40,000 nucleotides of DNA from Delftia acidovorans (GCF_037146395.1 NZ_JBBCVP010000004.1); one strand, 5' to 3'; counted from the first letter of the stretch, positions 14,965 to 29,982 are shown. Numbers and translations are program-made. Notes: generated from the sequence alone by a model not told the origin.

Positions 14965-15720
14965 ATGACCATCGCCATCCTCAGTGCCCTGCCGCAGGAA
15001 CAGGAAGGCCTGGTCCATGCCATGTCCGACGCCCAGGGCACGGCCCACGCCGGCCGCATGTTCTGGCGCGGGCGCCTGCATGGGCACGACGTGGTCTGCG
15101 CGCTGTCTGGCATAGGCAAGGTGGCGGCCGCCACCACGGCCACTGCGCTGATCGAGCGCTTCGGCGTGCGCCGCATCGCCTTCACCGGCGTCGCCGGTGG
15201 CCTGGGCGAAGGCGTGCGCGTGGGCGACGTGGTCGTGGCCGACGAATACCTGCAGCACGACCTGGACGCCTCGCCCATCTTCCCGCGCTGGGAAATGCCC
15301 GGCTACGGCCGCACGCGCCTGCCCTGCGACCCCGAAATGACGGCCGCCCTGCTGGCCGCCGCCCAGGCCTGCGTGGCCGACGCGGGTGAAGACCTGCGCG
15401 CCGCCCACACCACCACGGCGCCGCGTGCGCACCAGGGGCTGATTGCCAGCGGTGACCAGTTCGTGGGCACGGCGGGGGCTTCGCTGGCCTTGGCGCAGGG
15501 TCTGCGGGCTGCGGGGCATGAGGTGCTGGCGGTGGAGATGGAAGGTGCCGCCGTGGCGCAGGCCTGCCTGGACTATGGCGTGCCGTTTGCGGCCATGCGC
15601 ACGATTTCGGATCGGGCGGATGACAGTGCGCATGTGGACTTTGCGGAGTTTGTGCGGGTGGTGGCGAGTCGGTATGCGTTGCGGGTTGTTGATGGGTTTT
15701 TGCGGCGGCTTGCTGTTTGA
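14965..15720 (+). CDS. mtnN: 5'-methylthioadenosine/S-adenosylhomocysteine nucleosidase
   Basis: 251 aa from ATG 14965. Motifs SGIGKVAAA, EMEGAAVAQ, ISDRAD. Confidence 0.88.
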   Translation: MTIAILSALPQEQEGLVHAMSDAQGTAHAGRMFWRGRLHGHDVVCALSGIGKVAAATTATALIERFGVRRIAFTGVAGGLGEGVRVGDVVVADEYLQHDLDASPIFPRWEMPGYGRTRLPCDPEMTAALLAAAQACVADAGEDLRAAHTTTAPRAHQGLIASGDQFVGTAGASLALAQGLRAAGHEVLAVEMEGAAVAQACLDYGVPFAAMRTISDRADDSAHVDFAEFVRVVASRYALRVVDGFLRRLAV

Positions 15721-15749
15721 TTTTTGACCCTGCCGGGTGGTTGTTTTTC

Positions 15750-16000
15750 GAGGCCGGGTTTCGGCCCGGCGGCCGACCTACTTTCTTGCCGCGCGGCAAG
15801 AAAGTAGGCAAAGAAGCGCGCCCCACTGCCCACGACCCCTTCGCTGCGCTCCGGGGCGACCTGCGTAGGGCGCGATGCGGGGTGCGCCGTGAAACTCGTT
15901 ACGCGCTGCGCGCTTCACTCAAACATCACGGCGAGCTAGATGACGAAGCAGCCCTGTCCTTCGGCAGGGCTGCTACCCCGCACCCCGCCCAACGCAGGCG
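15750..16000 (+). repeat. structured ~250-bp repeat element, copy L (REP/MITE-like, no coding capacity)
   Basis: Contains three hairpins: GCCGGG..CCCGGC; a 14-bp stem CCTACTTTCTTGCC/GGCAAGAAAGTAGG at 15777-15808; and GCAGCCCTG/CAGGGCTGC. It is the reverse complement of 16141-16392, with the first ~38 nt identical. Confidence 0.85.
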
Positions 16001-16026
16001 TGGGCAGAAGGGGGAAGGCTGAAGGA

Positions 16027-16066
16027 CAGCCAACAGCCAACAGCCAACAGCCAACAGCCAACAGCC
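16027..16066. repeat. heptanucleotide microsatellite (CAGCCAA)x5 plus a partial sixth unit
   Basis: Five perfect CAGCCAA units at 16027-16061, then CAGCC. Located between the two inverted repeat copies. Confidence 0.95.
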
Positions 16067-16140
16067 AACAGCCGGCGCCATCGCTCCGCTCAGCTTCAAG
16101 CCGGGGCCGAGCGAAGCGAAGGCCCGTACCCACTCCCCGT

Positions 16141-16392
16141 ATGAACGCGCCTGCGGCGTGGTGGTTGCGGGGTTGCAGTCCTGCCGAAGGACAGGACTGC
16201 TTCGTCGACTGACTCGCTGCGGTTGTCTGAGCGGCGCGCGAAGCGCAAAGCGAGTTCCGCAGCGAACCCCGCAACCGCCACGACGCAGGTTGCCCCGGAG
16301 CGAAGCGCAGGGGTCGCGGGCATTCGGGTGCTTTTCTTTGCCTACTTTCTTGTAGCAAGACAAGAAAGTAGGTCGGCCGCCGGGCCGAAACC
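16141..16392 (-). repeat. structured ~250-bp repeat element, copy R (inverted relative to copy L)
   Basis: The reverse complement aligns along its length with 15750-16000. The same three hairpins are present, with stem-preserving substitutions. Confidence 0.85.
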
Positions 16393-16554
16393 CGGCCTCT
16401 GCCCGCCGGCCGGGCATGCGTCCAAAAGCAGACCCAGGAAGCATCAAAAAAGACCCCGAAAAACACACACCCAGACACACCTCTGTCATCCATTTCCCAC
16501 ACCCCTCCGTGTTTTCCCCAATCCCCCCCCGCCCCATCAGTCCTAAACTCACGC

Positions 16555-16593
16555 TTGTTTCAAGAAAAAAGTGTCATTTCAAATTTGAAACAA
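16555..16593. promoter_or_regulatory. split palindrome / candidate operator upstream of the 12-gene operon
   Basis: TTGTTTCA-N23-TGAAACAA. It contains the perfect 14-bp palindrome TTTCAAATTTGAAA (16577-16590). It ends 32 bp before ATG 16625. Confidence 0.55.
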
Positions 16594-16624
16594 GACACGA
16601 ACCCCCCTTCGATTGAGGAACGCC

Positions 16625-17395
16625 ATGAACACCACGCCCCCCACAGGCCAGCTTGCCGGCCGCCGCATCCTCGTCACAGGCTCGGCACGCGGCCTGGGCT
16701 TTGCGTTTGCCAAGGCCTTTTGCGAGCAGGGCGCGCGCGTCGCCATGGCCGATCTGCGGGAGGAGCTGCTGGCCGAATCCGTGGCCCGGCTGCGTGCGCA
16801 GGGCTTCGAGGCGCATGGCTTCGGGCTGGATGCCGGCAATCCGGAGTCGATAGAGCGCTGCGCGCAGCAGGCCGTGCAGGCGCTGGGCGGGCTGGACGGC
16901 CTGGTGAACAACGCGGCCGTGACCGATTCGGGCGGCAAGGGCATGGACGACATCGATCTGGACAAGTGGGACCAGGTGATGAACGTGAACGTGCGCGGCG
17001 TGTGGCTGATGACGCGTGCCTGCCGCGCCGCGCTGCGCGACAGCGGCCGGGGCGCCATCGTCAACCTGGCGTCCGACACCGCGATGTGGGGTGCCCCCAA
17101 CCTGATGGCCTATGTGGCCAGCAAGGGCGCGGTGATGGCCATGACGCGCTCCATGGCGCGCGAGCTGGGGGCCGACGGCATCACCATCAACGCCGTGGCG
17201 CCGGGCCTGGTGCTGGTGGAGGCCACGGAGTACGTGCCCGAGCACCGCCACCGCCTGTACATCGACCAGCGCGCGCTGCAGCGCGAGCAGCGGCCCGAGG
17301 ATGTGTCGGGCGCCGTGGCCTATGCGCTGTCCGATGGCGCGCGCTTCGTGACGGGGCAGGTACTGCCCGTCAACGGCGGCTTCGTCATGAATTGA
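16625..17395 (+). CDS. classical short-chain dehydrogenase/reductase (SDR)
   Basis: 256 aa from ATG 16625 (GAGGAA upstream). Motifs TGSARGLG, NNAAV, and Ser...YVASK with canonical spacing. Confidence 0.9.
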   Translation: MNTTPPTGQLAGRRILVTGSARGLGFAFAKAFCEQGARVAMADLREELLAESVARLRAQGFEAHGFGLDAGNPESIERCAQQAVQALGGLDGLVNNAAVTDSGGKGMDDIDLDKWDQVMNVNVRGVWLMTRACRAALRDSGRGAIVNLASDTAMWGAPNLMAYVASKGAVMAMTRSMARELGADGITINAVAPGLVLVEATEYVPEHRHRLYIDQRALQREQRPEDVSGAVAYALSDGARFVTGQVLPVNGGFVMN

Positions 17396-17407
17396 AGGAG
17401 GTTCGCC

Positions 17408-18295
17408 ATGACCGACACCACCTCTTCCGGGAATGCCGAGAGCGCCGAAAGCGCGGACAACGGCACCGACAAGTACATGGTGCCCGCGCTGGAGCGCGGC
17501 CTGCGCCTGCTGCAGGAGTTCGGGCGCGGCAATGCCACGCTGGGCGCGCCCGAGCTGGCCCGCCGCCTGCAGCTGCCGCGCGCCACGATTTTCCGCATGC
17601 TCAACACGCTGGAGGCCATGGGCTTTCTGCAGCGTGCCGAGGGCAGCAATGACTACCGGCTGGGCCTGTCCGTGCTGCGCCTGGGCTTCGAGTTCCTGTC
17701 GTCCATGGACCTGACCGAGCTGGGCCAGCCCGTGATCGCGCGGCTGTGCGGCGAGATCCGCTACCCCTGCAACATCGTGGTGCGTGATGGCCGCTCCATC
17801 GTCTACGTGGCCAAGGTCACGCCGCCCACGCCGCTGACCAGTTCGGTGCGTGTGGGCACGCGCCTGCCCGCCCATGCCACGGCCCTGGGCCGCGTGCTGC
17901 TGGCCGACCTGTCCCTGCCCGAGCTGCGCACGCTCTACCCCGAGGATCACCTGGAAGCGCACACGCCCAAGACGCCGCGCACGGTGCTGGACCTGTTCAA
18001 CCTGGTCGAGGCCGACCGCGAGCGCGGCCATGTGTTCAGCGAAGGTTTCTACGAAAGCTCCATCTGCACCATTGCCGCGCCCGTGCGCGACCACAGCGGC
18101 CGCGTGGTGGCGGCGCTGGGCACGACGGTCCCCGCGCCCCATGTGGAAGAGGGCCGTGCCGAGACCCTGATCGCCGGCGTCCGCGGCGCGGCGGCCGAAC
18201 TGTCCGAGCTGCTGAACTACCGCCCGCAAACGCAAACGCAGACGGCGCAGCTGCTTTCCCTCAATTCCCGGCGCGCAGGAGGCGGCCATGTTTGA
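17408..18295 (+). CDS. IclR-family transcriptional regulator
   Basis: 295 aa. Motifs VPALERGLRLL, LPRATIFRMLNTLE, GTRLPAHATALGRVLL. The stop overlaps the next gene's start by 8 bp. Confidence 0.92.
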   Translation: MTDTTSSGNAESAESADNGTDKYMVPALERGLRLLQEFGRGNATLGAPELARRLQLPRATIFRMLNTLEAMGFLQRAEGSNDYRLGLSVLRLGFEFLSSMDLTELGQPVIARLCGEIRYPCNIVVRDGRSIVYVAKVTPPTPLTSSVRVGTRLPAHATALGRVLLADLSLPELRTLYPEDHLEAHTPKTPRTVLDLFNLVEADRERGHVFSEGFYESSICTIAAPVRDHSGRVVAALGTTVPAPHVEEGRAETLIAGVRGAAAELSELLNYRPQTQTQTAQLLSLNSRRAGGGHV

Positions 18296-19085
18296 TTCCC
18301 AACTCAAGGACACCACGGCCGTCGTCACCGGCGGCTCTTCGGGCATTGGCCTGGCCACGGTCGATCTGCTGCTGTCGCAGGGCGCGCGTGTCGCCCTGTG
18401 CGGGCGCAATGCCGAACGCCTGGAGCAGGCCGTGCAGCACCTGCGCGAACGCCATCCCGAGGCCCGCCTGTTTTCACAGGCCTGCGACGTGCTCGACGCC
18501 GCCCAGGTGCAGCAATTCGCGCGTGACAGCGAGGCGGCGCTGGGTGCGGCCTCCATCCTCGTGAACAACGCGGGCCAGGGCCGGGTCTCGACCTTCGCCA
18601 GCACCGACGACGCGGCCTGGACCGAGGAGCTGCACCTGAAGTTCTTCTCGGTGCTGCATCCCACGCGCGCCTTCCTGCCGCAGCTGGAACGCACGGCGCA
18701 GCCGGCCATCGTCTGCGTGAATTCGCTGCTGGCCTCGCAGCCCGAGCCGCACATGGTGGCCACATCGGCCGCACGTGCCGGCCTCAAGAACCTGGTGCGC
18801 TCCATGGCTACCGAGTTCGCGCCCAAGGGTGTGCGCGTCAACGGCATCCTCGTCGGCCTGATCGAGTCCGGCCAGTGGCGCCGCCGCTTCGAGGCGCGCG
18901 AGGACCGCAGCCAGGACTGGAATGCCTGGAGCGGCGAACTGGCCCGCAAGAAAGCCATTCCGCTGGGCCGCCTGGGCTCGCCTGACGAGGCCGCCCGCGC
19001 CATCTTCTATCTCGCCACACCCCTGTCTTCGTACACGACCGGCAGCCACATCGATGTGTCAGGCGGTCTTTCGCGACAAGCCTAG
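18288..19085 (+). CDS. SDR-family protein with non-canonical active-site positions
   Basis: 265 aa. TGGSSGIG and NNAG are present, but the positions expected for Tyr-x3-Lys read T-S-A-A-R (Ser146, Thr159, Arg163 by spacing). GGAGG upstream. Confidence 0.85.
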   Translation: MFDSQLKDTTAVVTGGSSGIGLATVDLLLSQGARVALCGRNAERLEQAVQHLRERHPEARLFSQACDVLDAAQVQQFARDSEAALGAASILVNNAGQGRVSTFASTDDAAWTEELHLKFFSVLHPTRAFLPQLERTAQPAIVCVNSLLASQPEPHMVATSAARAGLKNLVRSMATEFAPKGVRVNGILVGLIESGQWRRRFEAREDRSQDWNAWSGELARKKAIPLGRLGSPDEAARAIFYLATPLSSYTTGSHIDVSGGLSRQA

Positions 19086-19119
19086 TGCCTCAGCCCAGCA
19101 ACCCGATTCCAAGCAGAAC

Positions 19120-20826
19120 ATGACATCCACCGCAAACAAAATCACCGTCGGCGCCGTTGTGGCCCAGTTCCTCGAACACTGCGGAGTCAAGGCCGCGTTC
19201 GGCGTGATCTCCATCCACAACATGCCCATCCTGGACGCGATGCATGCGCGCGGCCATGTCCGCTTCGTGATGGCACGCGGCGAGGCCGGCGCCGGCAACA
19301 TGGCCGATGCCTGCGCGCGTTCCACCTCCAGCCTGGGCGTGTGCATCACCAGCACCGGCCCGGCCGCCGGCAACATCGCCGGCAGCCTGGTGGAGGCCTA
19401 TACGGCCGGCACGCCGCTGCTGCACATCACGGGCCAGATCGAGACGCAGTACCTGGACCAGAAGCTGTCGTACATCCACGAGGCGCCCGACCAGCTGACC
19501 ATGCTGGGCGCCGTGTCCAAGGCGGCGTTCCGCGTGCGCAGCGCCGAGACCTGCCTGTCCACCCTCAAGGCCGCCGTGCAGGCCGCCATGACCGCGCCCA
19601 CGGGCCCGGTGAGCGTGGAGATTCCCATCGACATCCAGCAGACCGTGATCGACATGCCGGCCGACCTGTCGCCGCTGCCGGTGGCCGTGCTGGCGCCCAG
19701 CGAGGCATCGCTGGATGCGCTGGCCGACACGCTGGCCAAGGCACGCCGCCCGCTGCTGTGGCTGGGTGGCGGCGCACGCCACGCAGTCGCGGCCGTGCAG
19801 CGCCTGAAGGCGCTGGGCTTCGGCATCGTCAGCACGGGCCAGGGCCGCGGCATCGTGGCCGAGGACGATCCGGCCTCGCTGGGCGCCTACAACATCCAGA
19901 AGCCCGTGGAGGCCTTCTACCAGCGCTGCGACGCCATGCTGGCCGTGGGCACGCGCCTGCGCAGCAATGAGACGCTGAAGTACGAACTCAAGCTGCCGCG
20001 CCCGCTGCTGCGCATCGATGTCGATGCCGCCCAGCAGGGCCGCTGCTATGCCGACGACGGCTTTGTCTGCGGCGACTCGGCCCTGGCGCTGACGGGCCTG
20101 GCCGACCGGCTGGAGGCGCGCGGCTACCAAGCCGACCCCGAGCTGCTGGCCGACCTGCGCCAGGTGCATGACGAGGCGGTGGCCACCATGCGCGACGGCC
20201 TGGGCCCGTACAGCGTGCTGGTGCAGCAGCTGCAAAAGGCGGTGGGCCGCAACTTCAACTGGGTGCGCGACGTGACCGTCTCCAACAGCACCTGGGGCAA
20301 CCGCGAGCTGCGCTTTTTCGAGCCCAATGCGGGCGTGCACGCCACGGGCGGCGGCATCGGCATGGGCATGCCCATGGCCATCGGCGCTGCCGTGGGCGCG
20401 GCGGTGACCGGCTCGGGCCGCAAGACGCTGGGCCTGGCGGGCGATGGCGGCTTCATCCTGAACCTGGGCGAACTGGCCACGCTGGTGCAGGAGGAGTGCG
20501 ACACCCTGATCGTGCTCATGAACGACCAGCGCTACGGCGTGATCCAGAACATCCAGGACGCCTCCTACGGCGGCCGCCGCTGCTATGTGGAGCTGCACAC
20601 GCCCGACTACGCGCAGCTGTGCGCCTCCATCCAGCTGCCCCATGCCCGCGTGCAGAACCTCGACGAGCTGCCGGCCGTGCTGGCCTCTGCCTGGGCCAAG
20701 AAGGGCCCCTTCCTGCTGGAGATCGACATGCGCGCCATCGGCAGCTTCAAGGCCACGTTCTCGGGCCCTCCCGTGAACAAGCTGGACCAGATCCCGGCCA
20801 CCACCACGGCGTCCAAGGCCGCCTGA
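19120..20826 (+). CDS. thiamine-diphosphate-dependent enzyme (acetolactate synthase / decarboxylase / dione-hydrolase superfamily)
   Basis: 568 aa from ATG 19120. N-terminal PYR domain with the catalytic Glu context (ARGEAGAGNMADA). ThDP-binding GDGGF...x...ND motif. Confidence 0.88.
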   Translation: MTSTANKITVGAVVAQFLEHCGVKAAFGVISIHNMPILDAMHARGHVRFVMARGEAGAGNMADACARSTSSLGVCITSTGPAAGNIAGSLVEAYTAGTPLLHITGQIETQYLDQKLSYIHEAPDQLTMLGAVSKAAFRVRSAETCLSTLKAAVQAAMTAPTGPVSVEIPIDIQQTVIDMPADLSPLPVAVLAPSEASLDALADTLAKARRPLLWLGGGARHAVAAVQRLKALGFGIVSTGQGRGIVAEDDPASLGAYNIQKPVEAFYQRCDAMLAVGTRLRSNETLKYELKLPRPLLRIDVDAAQQGRCYADDGFVCGDSALALTGLADRLEARGYQADPELLADLRQVHDEAVATMRDGLGPYSVLVQQLQKAVGRNFNWVRDVTVSNSTWGNRELRFFEPNAGVHATGGGIGMGMPMAIGAAVGAAVTGSGRKTLGLAGDGGFILNLGELATLVQEECDTLIVLMNDQRYGVIQNIQDASYGGRRCYVELHTPDYAQLCASIQLPHARVQNLDELPAVLASAWAKKGPFLLEIDMRAIGSFKATFSGPPVNKLDQIPATTTASKAA

Positions 20827-20861
20827 GGCGGCTGGATTCGAACGAACGAGAGAGGCTCACC

Positions 20862-22337
20862 ATGTCGAACCTGGAACTGCTCCCCATCAATATCGCCGGC
20901 GAATGGCGCCTGGGCGGCGGTGGCGAATCCACCACGCTGTATCCCGCCACCGGCGAAGTGGTGGGCCGCCTGCGCGCGCCCAGCCTGGAGGATGTGGAGG
21001 AGGCCATCCAGAAGGCCGACCACGCCTTCCGCACCAGCGGCTGGGCCCAGAAAAAGCCCCATGAGCGCGCGGCCGTGCTGCACCGCGTGGCCCAGCTGAT
21101 CCGCGAGCGCGCCGAGCCGCTGGCCCAGCTGCAGCGCCTGGACAACGGCAAGCCCATCAAGGAAACACGCATGCTGGTGGCCAGCGCTGCCGCCACCTTC
21201 CAGTTCTTTGCCGCCGCCTGCGAGACCATGGAGGAAACCATCACGCCCTCGCGCGGCGACTTCATGACCATGAGCGTGTACGAGCCCATGGGCGTGGTGG
21301 CGGCCATCACGCCGTGGAACTCGCCCATCGCCAGCGAGGCGCAAAAGCTGGCGCCCGCGCTGGCCGCCGGCAATGCCGTGGTCGTCAAGCCCGCCGAAGC
21401 CACGCCGCTGCTGGCGCTGGAGCTGGCCAGGATCTGCGAGGAGGCCGGCGTGCCCAAGGGCCTGGTCAGCGTGCTGCCGGGCCGCGGCTCGGTGATCGGC
21501 GATGCCATCACCAAGCACCCGCTGGTCAAGCGCGTGTCGTTCACGGGCGGCACGTCCACGGGCAAGCACATCGCCCACATCGCGGCCGACAAGATGATGC
21601 CGGTCTCGCTGGAGCTGGGCGGCAAGTCGGCCACCATGGTGCTGGCCGATGCCGACATCGACCACGCCGTCAACGGCGTGCTCTACGGCATCTTCAGTTC
21701 CTCGGGCGAGTCGTGCATCGCGGGCTCGCGCCTGTTCGTGGCGCGCGCCTTGCACGCCGAGTTCATGCAGCGCCTGACGGCCAAGGCCGCCGCGCTGCAG
21801 GTGGGCGACCCGGCCGACGAGCGCACGCAGATGGGGCCGCTGATCACCGCCAGGCACCGCGAATCCATCGAGAGCTATGTGGCCCTGGGCCTGTCCGAAG
21901 GCGGCCGGCTGCTCACGGGCGGACAGCGGCCCGAGGGCGCGCAGTTCGAGCGCGGCTACTACTACCGCCCCACCATCATCGACGGCGTGAAGAACGACTG
22001 GCAGATCTGCCAGCAGGAAATCTTCGGCCCCGTGCTCGTGGCCATGCCCTTCGACAACGAGGACGACCTGCTCGCCCAGGCCAACGACAGCGTCTATGCG
22101 CTGGCCGCCGGCATCTGGACGCGCGACTACAAGAGCGCCTGGCGCATTGGCCGCGCCGTGCAGGCCGGCACGGTCTGGATCAACACCTACAAGCAGTTCT
22201 CCATCTCCACGCCCTTCGGCGGCTGGCGCGACAGCGGCCTGGGCCGCGAGAAGGGGCGGCTGGGCATACAGCAGTACATGGAGCAAAAGAGCATGTACTG
22301 GGGCTTGAACGAGAGCCCCATCGCTTGGGCAAATTGA
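20862..22337 (+). CDS. NAD(P)-dependent aldehyde dehydrogenase
   Basis: 491 aa from ATG 20862. Motifs LELGGKSA (Glu), GESCIAGSR (Cys), EEIFGPV-type QEIFGPV. Confidence 0.92.
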   Translation: MSNLELLPINIAGEWRLGGGGESTTLYPATGEVVGRLRAPSLEDVEEAIQKADHAFRTSGWAQKKPHERAAVLHRVAQLIRERAEPLAQLQRLDNGKPIKETRMLVASAAATFQFFAAACETMEETITPSRGDFMTMSVYEPMGVVAAITPWNSPIASEAQKLAPALAAGNAVVVKPAEATPLLALELARICEEAGVPKGLVSVLPGRGSVIGDAITKHPLVKRVSFTGGTSTGKHIAHIAADKMMPVSLELGGKSATMVLADADIDHAVNGVLYGIFSSSGESCIAGSRLFVARALHAEFMQRLTAKAAALQVGDPADERTQMGPLITARHRESIESYVALGLSEGGRLLTGGQRPEGAQFERGYYYRPTIIDGVKNDWQICQQEIFGPVLVAMPFDNEDDLLAQANDSVYALAAGIWTRDYKSAWRIGRAVQAGTVWINTYKQFSISTPFGGWRDSGLGREKGRLGIQQYMEQKSMYWGLNESPIAWAN

Positions 22338-22348
22338 AGGAGCACGAC

Positions 22349-23311
22349 ATGAGCGTACTGGGCATAGACGAAATCACCTATGGCGCGGACGACCTGGCGA
22401 CCTGCCGCCGCTTCTTCCTGGACTGGGGCCTGAAGCTGGTGCAGGAACAGGCCGACCGGCTGGTGTTCGAGACCCTCAACGGCTGCCGCGTGATCGTGGC
22501 CGCCGTGGACCATCCCGATCTGCCGCCCGCCATCGAGGCCGGCCCCACGCTGCGCGAGGTGGTCTGGGGCGTGGAGAGCGAGGCGGACCTTGCGCTGTAC
22601 GCCAGCCGCATTGCCGCGCTGCCGGGCTTCACGCAGGGCCAGGGGCGCATAGGCTGCACCGATCCCAACGGCCTGTCCGTGCGCCTGCAGGTCACGCAAA
22701 AGCGCGATGTCGATGTGCAAAGCGCCGCCTACAACACCTGGAGCCGCAAGGATCGCATCGACCAGGCCAGCCCCGCCTACGAGCGCGCCCAGCCCATCGA
22801 GGTCGGCCATGTGGTGTTCTTCGTCAAGGATGTGCAGGCCTGCGAGCGTTTCTACGTGGACAACTTCGGCTTCGCAGCCTCGGACCGCTACCCCGAGCGC
22901 GGCGCCTTCCTGCGCTGCGCGCCCGACGGCGGCCACCACGACATCTTCCTGCTGCAGCGCCCGGCCAGGGACGCGGGCCTGAACCACGTGGCCTTCACGG
23001 TGCGCGACATCCACGAGGTCTTCGGCGGCGGCATGCACATCTCGCGCTGCGGCTGGGACACCCAGTTGGGCCCGGGCCGCCATCCCGTGTCCTCGGCCTA
23101 TTTCTGGTACTTCCGCAATCCGGCCGGCGCCCTGGTCGAGTACTACGCCGACGAGGACCAGCTGACCGCCGACTGGCAGCCGCGCGAGTTCGAGCCCGGC
23201 CCCACGGTGTTTGCCGAATGGGCCATCGATGGCGGCATCGACGGCAACACCCGGCGCCAGAAGGGCGTTGGCACATCGGACGGCAAGTTCATCACCGACA
23301 AGCGGCATTGA
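22349..23311 (+). CDS. two-domain VOC-family protein (type I extradiol dioxygenase-like)
   Basis: 320 aa from ATG 22349 (GAAGGAG upstream). The C-terminal domain has candidate His/His/Glu metal ligands (VGHVVFF, LNHVAF, LVEYY). Confidence 0.8.
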   Translation: MSVLGIDEITYGADDLATCRRFFLDWGLKLVQEQADRLVFETLNGCRVIVAAVDHPDLPPAIEAGPTLREVVWGVESEADLALYASRIAALPGFTQGQGRIGCTDPNGLSVRLQVTQKRDVDVQSAAYNTWSRKDRIDQASPAYERAQPIEVGHVVFFVKDVQACERFYVDNFGFAASDRYPERGAFLRCAPDGGHHDIFLLQRPARDAGLNHVAFTVRDIHEVFGGGMHISRCGWDTQLGPGRHPVSSAYFWYFRNPAGALVEYYADEDQLTADWQPREFEPGPTVFAEWAIDGGIDGNTRRQKGVGTSDGKFITDKRH

Positions 23312-23362
23312 GACCGCGCCTGACGGCCTCCCCCCACAACCCAACCACCCCACGGCCTCCCC

Positions 23363-24340
23363 ATGAACAAGACACGTCGCCAGGTTTCTCTCGCCGCTGC
23401 ATTCCTGGCTGCAGCCACGCTGTCCGGCACCGCGATGGCCCAGGCCTATCCGGCCAAGCCCATCACCATCATCGTGGCCTATCCGGCCGGCGGCGACACC
23501 GATGCCATGGCGCGCCTGTATGCCGAGAAGCTGTCCACGCGCCTGGGCCAGCCCGTGCTGGTGGACAACCGCCCCGGTGCCAGCGGCACCATCGGCAGCG
23601 TGCATGTGGCCAAGGCCGCGCCGGACGGCTACACCCTGCTGCTGGCGCCCAATACCTTTGCCATCGCGCAATTCGTGCTCAAGACGGCCTCGGGCTCCAG
23701 CTACGACGTGCTGCACGGCTTCACGCCCATCGTGCAGACCAGCGTGCAGCCCATGTTCGTGGCCACCAACCAGGCCTCGGGCATCAAGGACATGAAGACC
23801 CTGATCGCCCAGGGCAAGCGCGACGGCCTGACCTACGCCAGCCCCGGCAGCGGCTCGCCCATGCACATCCTGGGCGAGATGTTCAACCGCGCCGCCGGCA
23901 CGCGTATCGCCCACATTCCCTACAAGGGCGTGGCGCCTGCCGTCAACGACCTGATCGGCGGCCATGTGCCCACGACCTTCATGACCTGGGGGCCGATCGC
24001 GCCCTACATCGGCGGCAAGGTCACCGCCCTGGCCGTGGCCGACGGCCAGCGCAGCGCGCTGGCCCCCAATGTGCCCACCCTGGCCGAACTGGGCGTCAAG
24101 GACGTGGAAGTGTCCGCATGGCAGGGCCTGTTCGGCCCCAAGGGCATGTCGCCCGAGACCGTGAAGCTGCTGAACACGCATCTCAACGAGATCCTGAAGA
24201 TGCCCGACGTGGTCTCCAAGATGGCCACCTTCGGCGCGCTGCCCGCGGGCGGCGAGCCCGCGCGCCTGGAAAAGACCAATGCCGCCGATTTCAATCGCTT
24301 CGGCAAGCTCATCAAAGATCTGGATATCAGGGCTGATTGA
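23363..24340 (+). CDS. Bug-family (TctC-like) periplasmic substrate-binding protein
   Basis: 325 aa. Signal peptide ends ...GTAMAQA. Motifs VDNRPGASG, PDGYTLLL, YASPGSGSPMH. Confidence 0.9.
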   Translation: MNKTRRQVSLAAAFLAAATLSGTAMAQAYPAKPITIIVAYPAGGDTDAMARLYAEKLSTRLGQPVLVDNRPGASGTIGSVHVAKAAPDGYTLLLAPNTFAIAQFVLKTASGSSYDVLHGFTPIVQTSVQPMFVATNQASGIKDMKTLIAQGKRDGLTYASPGSGSPMHILGEMFNRAAGTRIAHIPYKGVAPAVNDLIGGHVPTTFMTWGPIAPYIGGKVTALAVADGQRSALAPNVPTLAELGVKDVEVSAWQGLFGPKGMSPETVKLLNTHLNEILKMPDVVSKMATFGALPAGGEPARLEKTNAADFNRFGKLIKDLDIRAD

Positions 24341-24378
24341 GCCCCCCCCACACAAGACAGTTTTCGAAGGAGAGAACC

Positions 24379-24600
24379 ATGGCCGCTGATCGCTATCTCG
24401 AGCCGCACCAGGCGCGCGAACGCGCCCCCACCCTGATGGAAGACCTGCTGGGCGATTCCATCGAACGCGCCTTCGGCGAAGGCGTGCAGACCCTGCCCGA
24501 ACTGGTGGCCTATCTCAACCGCAGCGGCCCCGCCGGCGAGAACGGCCAGGCCTGGACCGAAGACAGCTTCCAGGCGCTGATGGCGCGGCTGGGCTATTGA
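24379..24600 (+). CDS. 73-aa protein of unknown function (possibly a recombinase-like HTH-type small protein)
   Basis: ATG 24379 is preceded by GAAGGAGAG. G/C-rich third positions. It sits 24 bp upstream of the Rieske oxygenase gene. The family assignment comes from memory of similar small proteins next to Rieske oxygenases and is unverified. Confidence 0.6.
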   Translation: MAADRYLEPHQARERAPTLMEDLLGDSIERAFGEGVQTLPELVAYLNRSGPAGENGQAWTEDSFQALMARLGY

Positions 24601-24624
24601 TACCGCGCAGGACAGGAGAGCCCC

Positions 24625-25650
24625 ATGAACGTACAAACCATCACCATCGATCCGGTGGACGGCCTGCTCAACAAAGGCCTGAAGAACCTCTGGTACGCGG
24701 TCTGCCCCTCGGACTTCGTGAAGACCCAGCCCGTGTCGGTGCGCCGCTTCGGCCGCAAGATCGCGCTGTGGCGCGATGCCGCCGGCCAGGTCCACGCGCT
24801 GGAAGACCACTGCCCGCACCGCGGCGCGCCGCTGTCGCAGGGCGTGATCCTGGGCGACCGCCTGGCCTGCCCCTACCACGGCGTGGAAGTGCGCTGCGAC
24901 GGCACGGTGACCAAGGTGCCCGGCAGCCCCGGCTGCAAGCTCGAGGGTTCGCGCGCGGCGCTGGCCTTCCATGCGCGCGAGGCGCATGGCGCCATCTTCC
25001 TCTACAACAGCGACAAGGCCGTGGACGAGGCGCCCGAGTTCACGCTGCCCGAGGAGCTGACCTCGCCCGAGTACTCCAACTTCCTGTGCTATGCCGAGTG
25101 GCGCAGCGACTACCGCTATGCGCTGGACAACGTCATGGACCCCATGCACGGCACCTTCCTGCACAAGCAGTCGCACTCCATGGCCGAGGGCGACAGCAAG
25201 GCCACGTTCCAGGTGCGCGAGACCGATGACGGCTTCGTCTTCGAGAAGGTGGGCCAGCGCGGCGTGAACTTCGACTGGACCGAGTGGGGCAGCACGGGCG
25301 TGCACTGGATGCGCCTGGAGATCCCTTATCCCAAGACCGGCGGCCCCGGCGGCAACTTCGCCATCGTGGCCTGCGTCACGCCCATCAGCGCCGACCTGTG
25401 CGCCGTGTTCTTCTGGCGCTGCCGCAAGGTGCAGGGCTGGATGCGCGATACCTGGCGCTTCCTGTACCGCAACCGCCTGGAGGCGCGCCACTGGGCCGTG
25501 CTGGAGCAGGACCGGATCATGATGGAGCAGATGGAGCTGGACGCCAACGAGCGCGAGAACCTCTACCAGCACGACATCGGCCTGGTGCGCCTGCGCCGCC
25601 ACCTGCGCCGCCTGGCCCAGGAGCAGATCGACGAAGGCGCCGCATCATGA
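24625..25650 (+). CDS. Rieske non-heme iron oxygenase, catalytic subunit (class IA, VanA/TsaM/phthalate family)
   Basis: 341 aa. Rieske motif CPHRG...CPYHG. Mononuclear iron motif DNVMDPMHGTFLH. There is no beta subunit, which is typical of alpha-only monooxygenases. Confidence 0.92.
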   Translation: MNVQTITIDPVDGLLNKGLKNLWYAVCPSDFVKTQPVSVRRFGRKIALWRDAAGQVHALEDHCPHRGAPLSQGVILGDRLACPYHGVEVRCDGTVTKVPGSPGCKLEGSRAALAFHAREAHGAIFLYNSDKAVDEAPEFTLPEELTSPEYSNFLCYAEWRSDYRYALDNVMDPMHGTFLHKQSHSMAEGDSKATFQVRETDDGFVFEKVGQRGVNFDWTEWGSTGVHWMRLEIPYPKTGGPGGNFAIVACVTPISADLCAVFFWRCRKVQGWMRDTWRFLYRNRLEARHWAVLEQDRIMMEQMELDANERENLYQHDIGLVRLRRHLRRLAQEQIDEGAAS

Positions 25651-26606
25651 GCACCCACCTCCAGGCCTTCGTGCACACGCTGCGCTTCGAGGCCCAGGAC
25701 ACCATCAGCGTGGACCTGCGGCCCGTGGCGGGCGGGGAGTTCCCCGCCTTCACGCCGGGCTCGCACATCGATCTGCACCTGCCCAACGGCCTGGTGCGCA
25801 GCTACTCGCTGAGCAACCCCAGCGAGGAGCGCCACCGCTACGTGGTCGGCGTGCTGCGCGACCGCGCCAGCCGCGGCGGCTCGCGCTGCGTGCACGAGTC
25901 GCTGCGCGTGGGCATGCCCATCACCATCTCCGAGCCGCGCAACCATTTCGCGCTCCATGAAGACGCCGCGCACACCGTGCTGGTGGCCGGCGGCATCGGC
26001 ATCACGCCGCTGCTGTGCATGGCGCGCCGGCTCAAGGGCCAGGGCCGCTCGTTCGAGATGCTGTACTTCGCCCGCGAGCGCAAGGGCGCGGCCTTCCTGG
26101 AAGAGCTGCAGGCGCTGGGCATGCCGCTGCACCTGCACTTCGACAGCGAGGCCGGCGGCCCGCCCGACCTGCACGCGCTGCTGGCCCAACGCCAGCCAGA
26201 CGCGGGCACGCACCACTACGCCTGCGGCCCCACCCCCATGCTGGACGCCTTCGAGAAGCTCTGCGCCGAACTGGGCCACGCCAACGCCCACATCGAGCGC
26301 TTCACGCCCGTGGAGGTCAAGGCCGCCGACGATGCGCGCAGCAACTACACGGTGGAGCTCAAGCGCAGCGGCCGCTTCATCGAGATCACGCCTGAGAAGT
26401 CGCTGCTGGACACGCTGCTGGATGCCGGCATCAAGATGGATTACAGCTGCTGCGAAGGCGTCTGCGGCTCCTGCGAGACGCGCGTGCTCGAAGGCGTTCC
26501 GGACCATCGCGACTCGGTGCTCAGCCCCAAGGAAAAGGCCAGCAACAAGGTGATGATGGTCTGCGTTTCCGGCTGCAAGAGCGAACGTTTAGTGCTCGAT
26601 ATCTGA
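25647..26606 (+). CDS. PDR/VanB-type oxygenase reductase (FMN + NAD(P)H + plant-type [2Fe-2S])
   Basis: 319 aa. Motifs RSYSLS, GGIGITP, and C-terminal CCEGVCGSCET...C. ATGA overlap with the oxygenase stop. Confidence 0.92.
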   Translation: MSTHLQAFVHTLRFEAQDTISVDLRPVAGGEFPAFTPGSHIDLHLPNGLVRSYSLSNPSEERHRYVVGVLRDRASRGGSRCVHESLRVGMPITISEPRNHFALHEDAAHTVLVAGGIGITPLLCMARRLKGQGRSFEMLYFARERKGAAFLEELQALGMPLHLHFDSEAGGPPDLHALLAQRQPDAGTHHYACGPTPMLDAFEKLCAELGHANAHIERFTPVEVKAADDARSNYTVELKRSGRFIEITPEKSLLDTLLDAGIKMDYSCCEGVCGSCETRVLEGVPDHRDSVLSPKEKASNKVMMVCVSGCKSERLVLDI

Positions 26607-26674
26607 GCAGGCAATCAGACCTGCAAGGCAACAACCCACCACCCCCAAGCCACCACCCCAGAGGAGACCACCCC

Positions 26675-27742
26675 ATGAAAACCATCCATACGCCCATGCT
26701 GGGCGTGGCGCTAGCCTGCCTGGCGTCCTTGCCCGGTGCCGCTTCGGCGCAGTCCAAGGTCGAGATCTTCGGCGTCGTCGATGTCGGCGTCACGCACCTG
26801 AACGGCTCAGGTCCCTCCAAGACCGGCCTGTCCACGGGCGGCGCCAACATCAGCCGCATCGGCTTTCGCGGCACGGAAGAGCTGGGCGGCGGCCTGCGCG
26901 CGGGCTTCTGGCTGGAAGCGGGCATGGACGTGGACAGCGGCTCGGGCAAGGCCAGCGGTGGCGGCCTGAGCTTCAACCGCCGCTCCACCGTGAGCCTGTC
27001 GGGCGACTTCGGCGAAGTGCGCCTGGGCCGCGATGACTCGGCCACCTTCCTGAGCACGCTGATCTTCGACCCCTTCCTCACCAACGGCGTGGGCGGCACC
27101 ATGGGCTTCACCATGCTGGGCATTCCCGGCACGGGCACGGCCACGGGCGGCGCGCCCATCCAGATCAGCAACGCGGTCAGCTACTTCCTGCCGCAGAACC
27201 TGGGCGGCTTCTACGGCCAGGTGCAGGTGGCCATGGGCGAGCAGGCGCGCAGCGCACCCAACAAGAACCAGGGCGACTACCGCGGCCTGCGCTTCGGCTA
27301 CCGCCAGGGTCCCTTCAACGGCGCGCTGGCCACGGGCAAGTTCTATGGCGACAGCGATGCGACCAACCTCACGGCCAGCAACGTGGGCCTGAGCTGGGAC
27401 TTCGGCGTGGCCAAGCCCATGCTGCTGTGGGCCACCGAAAAGCGCGGCGCGCTCAAGGTCACGGCCCTGCAGCTGGGCGTGACCGCGCCCGTGGGCATGG
27501 GTGAGTTCAAGGCCTCCTACGGCCACTACAACACCGACGGCAGCAATGCCGACTGGAACAAGATCAGCGTGGGCTACGGGCACAACCTGTCCAAGCGCAC
27601 CCAGGTCTACGGCACGGTGGCCTTCCTCAAGAACAAGGATGGCGCGGCCAAGTCCATCGGCGTGCAGGGCCTGTCGGCCCCGGGCACCACGCTGGGCGGC
27701 CGCTCCTCCGGCTTCGAGGTGGGCGTGCGCCACTTCTTCTGA
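26675..27742 (+). CDS. outer-membrane porin (Omp32/general Gram-negative porin family)
   Basis: 355 aa. Signal peptide ends ...GAASAQS. Motifs VEIFGVVDVG, RIGFRGTEELGGGL. C-terminal ...VGVRHFF. Confidence 0.9.
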   Translation: MKTIHTPMLGVALACLASLPGAASAQSKVEIFGVVDVGVTHLNGSGPSKTGLSTGGANISRIGFRGTEELGGGLRAGFWLEAGMDVDSGSGKASGGGLSFNRRSTVSLSGDFGEVRLGRDDSATFLSTLIFDPFLTNGVGGTMGFTMLGIPGTGTATGGAPIQISNAVSYFLPQNLGGFYGQVQVAMGEQARSAPNKNQGDYRGLRFGYRQGPFNGALATGKFYGDSDATNLTASNVGLSWDFGVAKPMLLWATEKRGALKVTALQLGVTAPVGMGEFKASYGHYNTDGSNADWNKISVGYGHNLSKRTQVYGTVAFLKNKDGAAKSIGVQGLSAPGTTLGGRSSGFEVGVRHFF

Positions 27743-27771
27743 TACAGCCCATCGGGCGATAGAGACTTGCC

Positions 27772-29067
27772 ATGAACGATATGCGTGCGGCCCGCTGGTG
27801 GGGGGTGATCAGCCTCTTCATCATCGTCGCCATCTCCTATGTGGACCGGATCAACCTTTCGATCCTCATCCTCGACCAGGGATTCCTGGACCACATCGGG
27901 CTGACGCACGACGACCGCACGCGCCAGGGCCTGCTGGCCACGGCCTTCATGGTGGGCTACGGTGTTTCTTCCTTCGTGTTGACGCCGTTTTGCGCGGCGC
28001 TCTTCGGCGTGCGCCGAAGCCTGGTGGTCGGCCTGCTGCTGTGGGGCGCCGTGTCCTTTCTGTCCCCGGCCATGAACAGCTATGGCCTGCTGCTGGCCTC
28101 GCGCATCCTGCTGGGCATCTCCGAAGGGCCGCTGTACTCGCTGGCGGGCAGCTACATCAAGGCGCATTTCCAGAGCCATGAGAACGGCCTGCCCAACTCC
28201 TTCGTGAACATGGGCACGGGCCTGGGGCTGGCGGTGGGCTACCCGCTGATCGGCTACCTGGTGGCCGGCCATGACTGGCAGACCTCGTTCCATGTGCTGG
28301 GCCTGATCAATGTGGCCATCGGCATCCCGCTGGTGCTGGCCTTCATCCGCATGCCCCGCGTGGACACCGGCATGCCGCGCCCGCGCTCCCTGGGCGAGGC
28401 CGTGGGCCAGGTCGGCCGGATCGTGCGCGGCGCCATGCACACACGCTATCTGGTGCTGGTGGCCGTGCTGTCGGCGGCCTTCTTCTCCTACCTCTGGGGC
28501 AGCAGCAACTGGTTGCCGGCCTACCTGGAGTCGCGCGGCTTTTCGCTGCGCGAGATGGGCTGGCTGGCCTCGCTGCCCCAGTACGCCACGGTGCTGGCCG
28601 TGCTGGTCGGCGGTATCGTGATCGACCGCCTGCCGCGCCGCCAGGTGCCGCTGATCTTCGTCGGCGGCAGCCTGGGCCTGGCGCTGGCCATCTGGCTGGC
28701 CATCCATATGGACGACCGGTACGCGGCGGCCTACTGCCTGATCGCCGCCAACTTCTGCTGGGGCCTGATGAGCCCGGCCATTCCCAGCACCGTGCAGTAC
28801 TGCGCGCGGCCCGAGCATGTGGCCAGCGCCTACGGCGTCGTCAACGGCACGGCGACCCTGGCGGCGGGCTTCATGCCCGCGCTCATGGGGGCCGTCATCG
28901 GCTGGACCTCGCATTCGGCCGGTGGCGGTTTCGTCGCAGGCTTCAGCCTGCTGGTGGGCACGCAGCTGGTGGTCATGGTCTGCGGCCTGGTGCTGTGGCT
29001 GCGCGAGCGCGGCCAGGGCACCGACGGTGCCAGCGATGCCCGGGACAGGTCGGCGCGCACGGCCTGA
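27772..29067 (+). CDS. MFS transporter (anion:cation symporter-like organic acid permease)
   Basis: 431 aa with about 12 hydrophobic segments. Motifs YVDRINLS near the N-terminus and LLGISEGP. Confidence 0.85.
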   Translation: MNDMRAARWWGVISLFIIVAISYVDRINLSILILDQGFLDHIGLTHDDRTRQGLLATAFMVGYGVSSFVLTPFCAALFGVRRSLVVGLLLWGAVSFLSPAMNSYGLLLASRILLGISEGPLYSLAGSYIKAHFQSHENGLPNSFVNMGTGLGLAVGYPLIGYLVAGHDWQTSFHVLGLINVAIGIPLVLAFIRMPRVDTGMPRPRSLGEAVGQVGRIVRGAMHTRYLVLVAVLSAAFFSYLWGSSNWLPAYLESRGFSLREMGWLASLPQYATVLAVLVGGIVIDRLPRRQVPLIFVGGSLGLALAIWLAIHMDDRYAAAYCLIAANFCWGLMSPAIPSTVQYCARPEHVASAYGVVNGTATLAAGFMPALMGAVIGWTSHSAGGGFVAGFSLLVGTQLVVMVCGLVLWLRERGQGTDGASDARDRSARTA

Positions 29068-29073
29068 CCTGCC

Positions 29074-29982
29074 CTACAGCGCGCCCGCTGCGGCGCATTG
29101 CTCCAGAAACGACACCAGGGCCTGCACGCGCGCCGTGCGGCCCTTGCGCGTGGGCACCAGCAGGGTGACGGGTGCGCTGCCGAAATGCCAGTCGGGCAGC
29201 ACGCGCACCAGCCGGCCCTCGGCAACGGCCGGTGCCATGTCCCATTGCGAACGCAGCACCAGGCCCAGTCCCTGCTCGGCCCAGTGGCGGGCCACGCCGC
29301 CGTCGTTGGTCACATAGGACGGCGTCACGCGCAGGGTCTGGCCGTCCGCGGCGCGCCGGCTGGCGGCCGGGTGCAGGTGCCACAGGGTCACGTCTTCCTC
29401 GTTCTCGCGGATGCAGATGCAGGCGTGCTGCAGCAGTTCACGTGGCGTGGCGGGCATGCCGTGGCGGCGCAGGTAGTCGGGGCTGGCGCACAGCCAGCGG
29501 TCATTGGCGGCCAGTTCGCGCGCCACCCAGGAGGAGTCGCGCACCACGCCGATGTGGAGCACGGCGTCGGCATCGTGGCGGTCGGGGAAGGGCGTTTCGC
29601 GCAGGTCCAGCTGCAGCTTCAGTTGCGGGTGCTGGCGCGTGAAGGCCACCAGGGCCGGGGCCAGCCGGCTGCGCCCGTAGCCGAAGGGCGCGGCAATGCG
29701 CAGCGTGCCGCCCAGCTGGCGCTGGTCGCCGTGCAGCGAGTCGCGCAATTCCTCGATCTGGCCCAGCAGCCGCGCGGCCTCGCGGGCGAAGCGCTCTCCC
29801 TCGGGCGTCAGGGCCAGGCGCCGCGCGCTGCGGTTGGCCAGGGACAGGCCCAGTTCGGCCTCCAGCCGGCGCAGCCGCATGGACAGGGCAGGCGGCGTCA
29901 CATCGAGCGCACGGGCTGCGGCGCTCAGCGAGCTTTCGCGCAGCAGGGCGGCGGCAAGCTGCAGGTCTTCGATGGCAATCAT
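29074..29982 (-). CDS. LysR-family transcriptional regulator
   Basis: 302 aa. HTH SLSAAARALDVTPPALSMRLRRLE. Convergent with the MFS gene (6-bp gap) and divergent from the HAD gene. Confidence 0.9.
   Translation of the reverse strand: MIAIEDLQLAAALLRESSLSAAARALDVTPPALSMRLRRLEAELGLSLANRSARRLALTPEGERFAREAARLLGQIEELRDSLHGDQRQLGGTLRIAAPFGYGRSRLAPALVAFTRQHPQLKLQLDLRETPFPDRHDADAVLHIGVVRDSSWVARELAANDRWLCASPDYLRRHGMPATPRELLQHACICIRENEEDVTLWHLHPAASRRAADGQTLRVTPSYVTNDGGVARHWAEQGLGLVLRSQWDMAPAVAEGRLVRVLPDWHFGSAPVTLLVPTRKGRTARVQALVSFLEQCAAAGAL

Follow-up and report, generated by a model that had tools for sequence, protein, structure and literature searches.

We analysed a stretch of 40,000 nucleotides from Delftia acidovorans (GCF_037146395.1 NZ_JBBCVP010000004.1), called the window below, that carries a set of catabolic genes in two operons (11780-14860 and 16625-29067). 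Judged from the families and motifs of the encoded proteins, there is roughly an even chance (about 0.5) that this set degrades kynurenate (4-hydroxyquinoline-2-carboxylate). D. acidovorans is a textbook tryptophan degrader that proceeds via kynurenate (the "quinoline pathway"), and to our knowledge the genes of this pathway have never been found. As described in the 1960s (KEGG map00380 and the original papers), kynurenate is converted to a 7,8-dihydrodiol and then to 7,8-dihydroxykynurenate, which undergoes extradiol cleavage of the 8,8a bond; the pathway's Enzyme Commission (EC) numbers are 1.14.99.2, 1.3.1.18 and 1.13.11.10. In the later steps the side-chain C=C bond is reduced, the 2-oxoacid decarboxylated, and the aldehyde oxidized to 5-(2-carboxyethyl)-4,6-dihydroxypicolinate. 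The three orphan reactions call for an oxygenase, a diol dehydrogenase, and an extradiol enzyme, and are matched by a Rieske oxygenase with its reductase, a classical short-chain dehydrogenase/reductase (SDR1), and a VOC-family dioxygenase, all of them intact. The passage from the ring-fission product to the carboxyethyl compound calls for C=C reduction, decarboxylation, and aldehyde oxidation, matched by an atypical SDR (SDR2), a thiamine diphosphate (ThDP)-dependent enzyme, and an aldehyde dehydrogenase (ALDH).

The compound 5-(2'-carboxyethyl)-4,6-dihydroxypicolinate was confirmed as a recognized downstream metabolite of the kynurenine pathway. Hayaishi et al. (1961) name L-glutamate, D- and L-alanine, and acetate among the products, with which the 2-oxoglutarate and oxaloacetate or aspartate predicted by our scheme (below) are compatible. 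A 2018 review, where it turns to the microbial catabolism of kynurenate, traces it solely to Hayaishi 1961 and to Dagley and Johnson 1963. No gene assignment for kynurenate breakdown appeared in the literature that we searched, and neither the curated NCBIfam families (June 2026) nor the searchable open-access literature offered a function for the gene set. To this extent the original prediction, made from the DNA sequence alone, holds in finding no assignable substrate; the mapping of the set onto the kynurenate pathway, if correct, would supply one.

The larger operon comprises twelve genes, all on the + strand, with start codons set by ribosome-binding sites and by alignment of orthologues. 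The smaller lies upstream and adds a cupin, an alpha/beta hydrolase, a second IclR regulator, and an aspartate dehydrogenase (AspDH), so that the functional unit reaches upstream to 11780. The sixteen genes are as follows:

11780-12310, + strand, quercetinase-like cupin (Pfam Cupin_2)
12325-13179, + strand, alpha/beta hydrolase (Pfam Abhydrolase_1)
13202-14008, + strand, IclR0, IclR-family regulator of the upstream operon (Pfam HTH_IclR and IclR_C)
14057-14860, + strand, L-aspartate dehydrogenase, AspDH (NCBIfam equivalog NF009827)
16625-17395, + strand, SDR1, classical SDR (Pfam adh_short)
17408-18295, + strand, IclR1, IclR-family regulator (Pfam)
18288-19085, + strand, SDR2, atypical SDR (Pfam; NCBIfam PRK07062)
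19120-20826, + strand, ThDP-dependent enzyme (Pfam; NCBIfam PRK07064)
20862-22337, + strand, ALDH (Pfam Aldedh, 563 bits)
22349-23311, + strand, VOC, two-domain type I extradiol dioxygenase (Pfam; alignment)
23363-24340, + strand, Bug/TctC periplasmic binding protein (Pfam TctC, 197 bits)
24379-24600, + strand, HTH_62 protein of 73 amino acids (Pfam PF20552, 108 bits, match over the full length)
24625-25650, + strand, alpha-only Rieske oxygenase (Pfam Rieske and VanA_C)
25647-26606, + strand, PDR/VanB-type reductase (Pfam NAD_binding_1 and C-terminal Fer2)
26675-27742, + strand, outer-membrane porin (Pfam Porin_4, 225 bits)
27772-29067, + strand, MFS permease of the anion:cation symporter type (Pfam MFS_1)

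The intergenic gaps in the twelve-gene block are, in order, 12, -8, 34, 35, 11, 51, 38, 24, -4, 68, and 29 bp, and a terminator scan of 16625-29067 yielded no intergenic terminator, its sole matches being weak and intragenic. In these respects the original prediction was accurate: it had described twelve same-strand genes with gaps of -8 to 68 bp (borne out by the chosen starts) and without terminators between them, forming one catabolic block that brings along a porin, a periplasmic binding protein, and a permease. Pfam likewise agrees with each of its twelve family calls, and its second SDR is indeed atypical. The extent that it gave to the block was incomplete; the twelve genes stand, and the four upstream genes had been overlooked. 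The Rfam scan returned no RNA elements, and the sigma-70 promoter scan no matches in this DNA of about 69% G+C. The proteins of the window share 97-98% identity with those of D. acidovorans and D. tsuruhatensis; at the locus itself, those of D. acidovorans NBRC 14950 are 95-100% identical.

The evidence that these genes belong together is their conservation. When a single genome from each species was searched with aligned ThDP-enzyme orthologues, relatives were found by this marker in at least 567 species; the best 80 loci were annotated by BLAST against the window proteins, and the 63 with full flanks underlie all counts given here. SDR2, the ThDP enzyme, ALDH, VOC, HTH_62, the Rieske oxygenase, and IclR each occur in all 63 loci; the cupin, hydrolase, SDR1, PDR reductase, and AspDH in 60 or 61. 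The link to the upstream genes was first seen by tblastn of plasmids and chromids with the ThDP enzyme as query, where Cupriavidus, Ralstonia, and Caballeronia have the same genes interleaved with those for the cupin, the alpha/beta hydrolase, and aspartate dehydrogenase. The canonical order, (Bug)-SDR1-cupin-hydrolase-IclR-SDR2-ThDP-AspDH-ALDH-VOC-(Bug)-HTH_62-Rieske-PDR-(porin)-(MFS), holds in Variovorax, Herbaspirillum, Cupriavidus, Ralstonia, Pseudomonas, Polaromonas, and Massilia, the split into two operons being limited to Delftia, Comamonas, and Paracidovorax. The same content in another order is found in Novosphingobium, Paracoccus, Pseudosulfitobacter, and Nitratireductor (roseobacters being among these relatives), and in Acinetobacter baumannii, Klebsiella pneumoniae, and Streptomyces chartreusis; it is kept across three proteobacterial classes and one actinobacterium. 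A constant content in a shuffled order is strong evidence for a single pathway, and the grouping is far beyond chance.

Within the set we discern two modules. The core consists of VOC, cupin, hydrolase, SDR2, ThDP enzyme, AspDH, and ALDH. The SDR2 gene always lies directly upstream of the ThDP gene, the ALDH gene is tied to both in every genome, AspDH stands between ThDP and ALDH in the canonical operon, and in the canonical operon of other genera the cupin gene adjoins that of the hydrolase. The upper module consists of the Rieske oxygenase, its reductase, HTH_62, and SDR1. SDR1 was found alongside the Rieske gene in 61 of the 63 loci; Vibrio nigripulchritudo has the one cluster devoid of a Rieske gene, and there SDR1, HTH_62, and the reductase are missing too, with a flavin monooxygenase present instead. 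Other components vary. The transporters are of the Bug, TRAP, ACS-MFS, or NitT/TauT-type ABC kind, all of them anion types, and the electron-transfer partner is either PDR or a ferredoxin with an FAD reductase (Acinetobacter, Klebsiella). Three further genes are found in relatives and not in the window's cluster. One, for a group A flavin monooxygenase, accompanies the Rieske module in 18 of the 63 loci; the second encodes a protein of 111 amino acids with no Pfam match (17 loci); and the third, for a RidA imine deaminase, is inserted between the Rieske and reductase genes (also 17). Examples of such additional in-cluster genes lie at 15740-17155 in locus L044, and at 16281-16616 and 17928-18365 in locus L065.

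The catalytic motifs of the upper module are intact. The Rieske protein has the cluster motif CPH-X17-CPYH and the mononuclear-iron motif DPMHGTFLH, and the block holds no beta-subunit gene. An alpha-only oxygenase with CxH...CxxH and DxxHxxxxH motifs, served by a single FNR-like/2Fe-2S reductase (its Cys cluster motif is present), belongs to class IA, the phthalate family of Rieske oxygenases. Its closest solved structures, SxtDIOX/SxtT, DdmC, and KshA, are distant (1e-20 to 1e-17). SDR1 has a Ser/Tyr/Lys active site, with YVASK at residues 163-167 and the serine in the conserved segment LASDT, and since it tracks the Rieske gene, a dihydrodiol dehydrogenase fits better than a benzyl-alcohol dehydrogenase. 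The HTH_62 gene adjoins the Rieske gene in 58 of the 63 loci; Acinetobacter, Klebsiella, Streptomyces, and Novosphingobium show the same adjacency. Its product is predicted to fold as a three-helix bundle (predicted local distance difference test, pLDDT, 84.5), for which a Foldseek search of the PDB gave no structural neighbour and nothing under E = 0.6; an invariant N-terminal YLxPHQAR motif lies in a low-confidence segment of the model. Instead of binding DNA, the protein may act as the oxygenase's partner.

In the core module, alignment of VOC with homoprotocatechuate 2,3-dioxygenase shows both metal-binding His residues, the metal-binding Glu, the acid-base His, and the active-site Tyr to be retained; this 2-His-1-Glu site, with the catalytic His and Tyr in the C-terminal domain, is that of a type I extradiol dioxygenase (top PDB match 3b59, 1e-18). 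SDR2 belongs to the NCBIfam equivalog PRK07062 (462 bits against a cutoff of 266) and is an orthologue of PDB 3LF1, the "Short chain oxidoreductase Q9HYA2" of P. aeruginosa (8e-125). The YxxxK motif is absent; SDR2 has Thr-159 and Arg-163 where a classical SDR has Tyr and Lys, Q9HYA2 is identical there, and the replacement segment PEPHMVATSAARAG is kept in 83 orthologues. The ThDP enzyme falls in the uncharacterized equivalog PRK07064 (897 bits) and has a GDG-X25-ND motif; among models whose function is named, it scores highest with 5-guanidino-2-oxopentanoate decarboxylase (267 bits), and its solved relatives are distant (acetohydroxyacid synthase being closest, 1.9e-47). ALDH has its catalytic Cys and Glu motifs and reaches no NCBIfam cutoff, with betaine-aldehyde dehydrogenase, HpaE, and StyD as top matches. 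The cupin's closest solved structure is the Ni-quercetinase QueD (1e-5), and its H98, H100, and E104 (numbering of the 181-amino-acid open reading frame) are kept in 76 orthologues. For the hydrolase, which has the nucleophile motif GHSLG, the closest named family is the 3-oxoadipate enol-lactonase PcaD (104 bits, under the cutoff), and a BphD-type C-C hydrolase model gives just 34 bits. AspDH is well assigned, both by NF009827 (474 bits against a cutoff of 226) and by its match to the L-aspartate dehydrogenase of PDB 2dc1 (5.5e-32). Among the transporters, the top NCBIfam subfamily of the MFS permease is the D-galactonate transporter group, under its cutoff.

The scheme that we propose, with its substrate and each of its steps inferred, runs as follows. 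The porin, Bug protein, and MFS permease would import the kynurenate anion. The Rieske oxygenase and PDR reductase would then form 7,8-dihydro-7,8-dihydroxykynurenate, from which SDR1, as dihydrodiol dehydrogenase, would produce 7,8-dihydroxykynurenate. Cutting of the 8,8a bond by VOC should yield 4,6-dihydroxypicolinate with a 3-carboxy-3-oxopropenyl side chain, whose double bond would be reduced by SDR2 (an NADPH-dependent 2-oxo-3-enoate reductase); the ThDP enzyme would decarboxylate the resulting 2-oxoacid to an aldehyde, and ALDH would oxidize this to 5-(2-carboxyethyl)-4,6-dihydroxypicolinate. The cupin might then attack C5 of the hydroxypyridone, the enolized beta-ketoamide carbon, cleaving C4-C5 to give N-(2-oxoglutaryl)-aminofumarate (an N-acyl enamine), which the hydrolase would split into 2-oxoglutarate and aminofumarate, a tautomer of iminoaspartate. 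Lastly, AspDH would reduce iminoaspartate to L-aspartate; otherwise, hydrolysis of the imine, assisted by RidA, would give oxaloacetate and ammonia. The carbon of the C10 substrate would thereby be distributed over CO2, a C5, and a C4 compound. In relatives with the flavin monooxygenase, this enzyme could hydroxylate xanthurenate (8-hydroxykynurenate) at C7 to the same catechol, and these strains may also degrade xanthurenate.

Several traits of the set agree with kynurenate as substrate. By analogy, 5-guanidino-2-oxopentanoate, the substrate of the nearest named ThDP family, supports it, being a similarly shaped 2-oxoacid. The presence of AspDH in the set, and of RidA in 17 of the 63 relatives, is nitrogen chemistry that fits; moreover, the trapping of iminoaspartate would explain why a cluster for aromatic catabolism includes an aspartate dehydrogenase of its own. 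We also count in its favour the pairing of a quercetinase-like cupin with a lactonase-like hydrolase, and the uniformly anionic transporter types.

Other observations weigh against it. The evidence for the substrate is indirect, and other N-heteroaromatic or aromatic carboxylates could follow the same enzyme logic. The nearest solved relatives of the Rieske protein (SxtT, DdmC, KshA) are monooxygenases and not cis-dihydroxylating. Of the intermediates after ring fission, the carboxyethyl compound is the one that was confirmed, and the roles of the cupin, hydrolase, and AspDH are our own proposal on chemical grounds. The cupin in particular lacks the motif-2 His, and its AlphaFold model is of low confidence (pLDDT 62), with Foldseek retrieving generic cupins only. 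HTH_62 and the 111-amino-acid protein and flavin monooxygenase of the relatives have no assigned step. Finally, clustering and Pfam annotation of the flanks of the inspected clusters disclosed no kynurenine-forming genes; the flanks otherwise contain ABC transporters, a D-amino-acid-dehydrogenase-like gene (Variovorax), and housekeeping genes. We advance tentatively, at slightly below even odds, the wider claim that the cluster holds all the genes of the kynurenate pathway, with four new enzyme functions and HTH_62 as an obligatory partner of the Rieske oxygenase.

It is possible, if on the whole doubtful, that the same architecture and logic serve another aromatic or N-heteroaromatic carboxylate, such as quinaldate, another hydroxyquinoline carboxylate, or an amino-aromatic acid. 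Its ring would be dihydroxylated and meta-cleaved, the ThDP enzyme and ALDH would shorten a 2-oxoacid side chain, and the cupin and hydrolase would open a second ring or an enol to release an oxaloacetate or iminoaspartate unit. Evidence at the level of families is silent on the exact substrate, and the molybdenum hydroxylase of Cupriavidus pauculus and the TonB receptor and GH3 gene of Novosphingobium (both described below) point to variable feeder substrates. Against this, AspDH needs an N-C(COOH)-C-C(O) fragment, which kynurenate would provide directly, and we know of no other described pathway that needs exactly this enzyme set.

Cleavage of the A-ring of a flavonoid, isoflavonoid, or chromone, as by the ifc genes of Variovorax or the fde genes of Herbaspirillum, we consider improbable. 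It would account for the quercetinase-like cupin, for the in-cluster flavin monooxygenase of the Variovorax and Herbaspirillum relatives, and for the GH3 gene adjoining the Novosphingobium cluster; the ifc route begins with a flavin monooxygenase and continues with a VOC dioxygenase, an alpha/beta hydrolase, and then cupins (PMC11069340). However, Pfam found no FAD monooxygenase among the gene candidates scanned in the window, for all that 18 relatives have one, and the ifc hydrolase is C-C-hydrolase-like whereas that of the cluster is enol-lactonase-like. The published route leaves the ThDP enzyme, SDR2, AspDH, and RidA without a role, and ifc is variable among strains, in contrast to a cluster present in all sampled Variovorax species. 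In addition, Vibrio, roseobacters, Klebsiella, and Acinetobacter have the cluster, and its transporters are of the carboxylate type.

The original prediction had seen in the block the logic of TsaMBCD, that is, stepwise oxidation of a methyl or methoxy group to a carboxylate by a Rieske oxygenase, an alcohol dehydrogenase, and an aldehyde dehydrogenase in succession. An alpha-only Rieske protein with VanA_C, a PDR reductase, an SDR, an ALDH, a porin, and an IclR regulator are indeed all present, and the closest solved Rieske relatives, being monooxygenases, suit it. Nevertheless this explanation is very improbable: it founders on the conserved partnerships of SDR1 and of ALDH, the latter tied to the ThDP enzyme, SDR2, and AspDH and not to the Rieske module, and on the neighbouring LysR gene, which is part of a different operon. 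It also leaves unexplained VOC, cupin, hydrolase, ThDP enzyme, and AspDH, which are as conserved as the Rieske gene, and there was no match to a Tsa family in NCBIfam. As for a chance juxtaposition of unrelated transcription units, the break in the Delftia and Comamonas set, where a housekeeping gene (for a nucleosidase) and a palindromic element of 650 bp intervene and each half has its own IclR gene, might have suggested it, but co-occurrence in 63 of 63 loci, a content conserved despite shuffled order, overlapping coding regions, and the absence of internal terminators refute it at the level of gene content and leave it a negligible chance overall.

Five narrower routes were tried and dropped. 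A mandelate-like or arylglycine route would employ SDR, ThDP enzyme, and ALDH and leaves out VOC, cupin, hydrolase, and the Rieske oxygenase. Ring hydrolysis by the ThDP enzyme, of the cyclohexane-1,2-dione or IolD type, found no scoring IolD or CDH model. For pyridoxine degradation SDR1 scores 205 bits against the pyridoxal 4-dehydrogenase cutoff of 325, and most enzymes of the pathway are missing. A C3 sulfonate route (cysteate or sulfolactate via sulfopyruvate to sulfoacetaldehyde) suits AspDH, SDR2, ThDP enzyme, and ALDH and not the aromatic enzymes, and cleavage of 2,3-dihydroxyphenylalanine to aspartate leaves the ThDP enzyme, ALDH, and cupin unexplained.

The region between the two operons contains the following features, besides an AT-rich promoter region in which the 16-bp palindrome lies:

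14908-14928, + strand, strong intrinsic terminator (9-pair stem, 8 of them G-C, then a T run)
14965-15720, MTA/SAH (methylthioadenosine/S-adenosylhomocysteine) nucleosidase gene (NCBIfam equivalog, 279 bits)
15750-16399, palindromic element of about 650 bp (arms: outer 176 nt, 82% complementary; inner 83 nt)
16576-16591, palindrome ATTTCAAATTTGAAAC, candidate operator, in an AT-rich stretch 5' of the SDR1 gene

The terminator closes the cupin-hydrolase-IclR0-AspDH operon. The nucleosidase gene, which stands between the two operons solely in Delftia, Comamonas, and Paracidovorax, is probably a housekeeping gene unrelated to the cluster. The palindromic element holds an (ACAGCCA)n tandem run (16026-16074), and an open reading frame of 208 amino acids on the - strand (15926-16552), with no family match, is probably spurious. 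IclR0, of the PcaR/PcaU/PobR subfamily with a score under the cutoff, and IclR1 are paralogues with 48% identity, and we propose that each regulates one operon; IclR1 is the one orthologous to the canonical operon's regulator. The palindrome ATTTCAAATTTGAAAC has a single match in the whole window, against a chance expectation of 0.01. Upstream of the cupin gene, at 11680-11740, there is a TATAAT-like box with an inverted repeat, CCATGAAcTATgaTTCATGG. As this repeat is unlike the palindrome upstream of the twelve-gene block, the two IclR paralogues may use different candidate operators.

Downstream, a LysR gene on the - strand (29074-29982) is convergent with the block and divergent from an operon with these genes:

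30055-30729, HAD hydrolase
30758-31900, D-threo-3-hydroxyaspartate dehydratase, near-identical to the Delftia sp. HT23 enzyme (PDB 3WQC, 6.7e-244)
about 31890-32309, RidA protein

The LysR gene, which the original prediction had taken for a counterpart of TsaR, is found in just 3 of the 63 related loci and, being divergent from the dehydratase operon, belongs to and serves that operon and not the twelve-gene block. The dehydratase operon is another system producing iminoaspartate or oxaloacetate, adjoining the cluster.

Some related loci have neighbours of their own. On a plasmid of Cupriavidus pauculus (locus L007, 21934-24541) a two-subunit molybdenum hydroxylase, with a 2Fe-2S subunit and a molybdopterin subunit and with its own IclR and Bug protein, is encoded directly 3' of the cluster. 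It is possibly a feeder enzyme for N-heterocycles such as quinaldate; the neighbour was confirmed at this one Cupriavidus locus, and homologues of the small subunit lie near the cluster in loci L071 and L082. On pSA2 of Novosphingobium resinovorum (locus L009, 7711-11936) the genes directly 5' of ThDP-AspDH-ALDH encode a TonB-dependent receptor and a GH3 glycoside hydrolase, with beta-oxidation-type genes farther upstream, a hint that the feeder substrate of sphingomonads is glycosylated or bears a side chain.

Overall, the cluster varies the Rieske/extradiol catabolic theme; it is widespread, its lower pathway is unusual, and so far it has no function assigned. Even with another substrate, it would be an eleven-enzyme catabolic module, present by its ThDP marker in at least 567 species, that has no assigned function. 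Kynurenic acid is a major tryptophan catabolite that acts on GPR35 and the aryl hydrocarbon receptor and rises in inflammation. Should our reading be true, three orphan EC numbers would gain sequences and a gap of sixty years would be closed. Four new functions would be gained: a Tyr-less SDR as 2-oxo-3-enoate reductase, a dedicated ThDP decarboxylase, a hydroxypyridone-opening cupin, and an AspDH that traps iminoaspartate. An explanation would be at hand for PDB 3LF1, an orphan of structural genomics, and for what aspartate dehydrogenase does physiologically in bacteria. An unusual lower pathway would be defined, and bacteria from soil, sea, gut, and clinic that consume kynurenate could be recognized by a marker. 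A. baumannii, K. pneumoniae, the Burkholderia cepacia complex, and P. aeruginosa (the last included only through its orthologue Q9HYA2) could then consume a host immunomodulator, kynurenic acid. Both the A. baumannii (locus L095) and the K. pneumoniae records contain the cluster in full. In A. baumannii ATCC 17978 the genes A1S_0956-0958 (AspDH, ALDH, ThDP enzyme) were reported to be 2.2- to 2.4-fold up in mucin medium (PMC5757984).

Compared with known systems, the kynurenate pathway (Hayaishi, Taniuchi, Kuno, Dagley) matches the set one to one, in number of steps and in chemistry, up to 5-(2-carboxyethyl)-4,6-dihydroxypicolinate; the cupin, hydrolase, and AspDH steps that we propose lie outside the described biochemistry. 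The closest gene-level analogues are ifc and fde (PMC11069340), which share the logic for a ring fused to a benzo ring (4-pyranone there, 4-pyridone in our proposal): a 7,8-diol, cleavage by VOC, then an alpha/beta hydrolase and a cupin. By its published description ifc differs in having a flavin monooxygenase where the cluster has a Rieske oxygenase and diol dehydrogenase, in removing the side chain hydrolytically where the cluster would do so by reduction, decarboxylation, and oxidation, and in having no reported ThDP enzyme, atypical SDR, or AspDH. An ifc/fde cluster would be expected to have a C-C hydrolase of the 2,6-dihydropseudooxynicotine hydrolase type; the cluster's hydrolase scores best with enol-lactonase models.

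The TsaMBCD/TsaT/TsaQ/TsaR system of Comamonas testosteroni, likewise of the Comamonadaceae, resembles the cluster in pairing an alpha-only Rieske oxygenase with a reductase of the PDR type, and in its SDR, ALDH, porin, and IclR regulator. Genes for ring cleavage, a ThDP enzyme, a cupin, a hydrolase, and AspDH are absent from the tsa system, the SDR and ALDH of the cluster have other conserved partners, and the LysR gene next to the cluster is unrelated to it. The class IA oxygenases, such as phthalate 4,5-dioxygenase and 2-oxoquinoline 8-monooxygenase, resemble the Rieske system of the cluster in their homo-oligomeric, alpha-only oxygenase, in their single reductase with flavin and plant-type 2Fe-2S cluster, and in their anionic or N-heteroaromatic substrates. 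They differ in sequence (51-55 bits to phthalate dioxygenases, 35 bits to OxoO) and do without the 73-amino-acid HTH_62 partner that the cluster conserves. Finally, for Q9HYA2 (PDB 3LF1/3LF2), the SDR2 orthologue that was crystallized with neither its function nor its substrate known, our analysis gives a genomic context and a candidate reaction.

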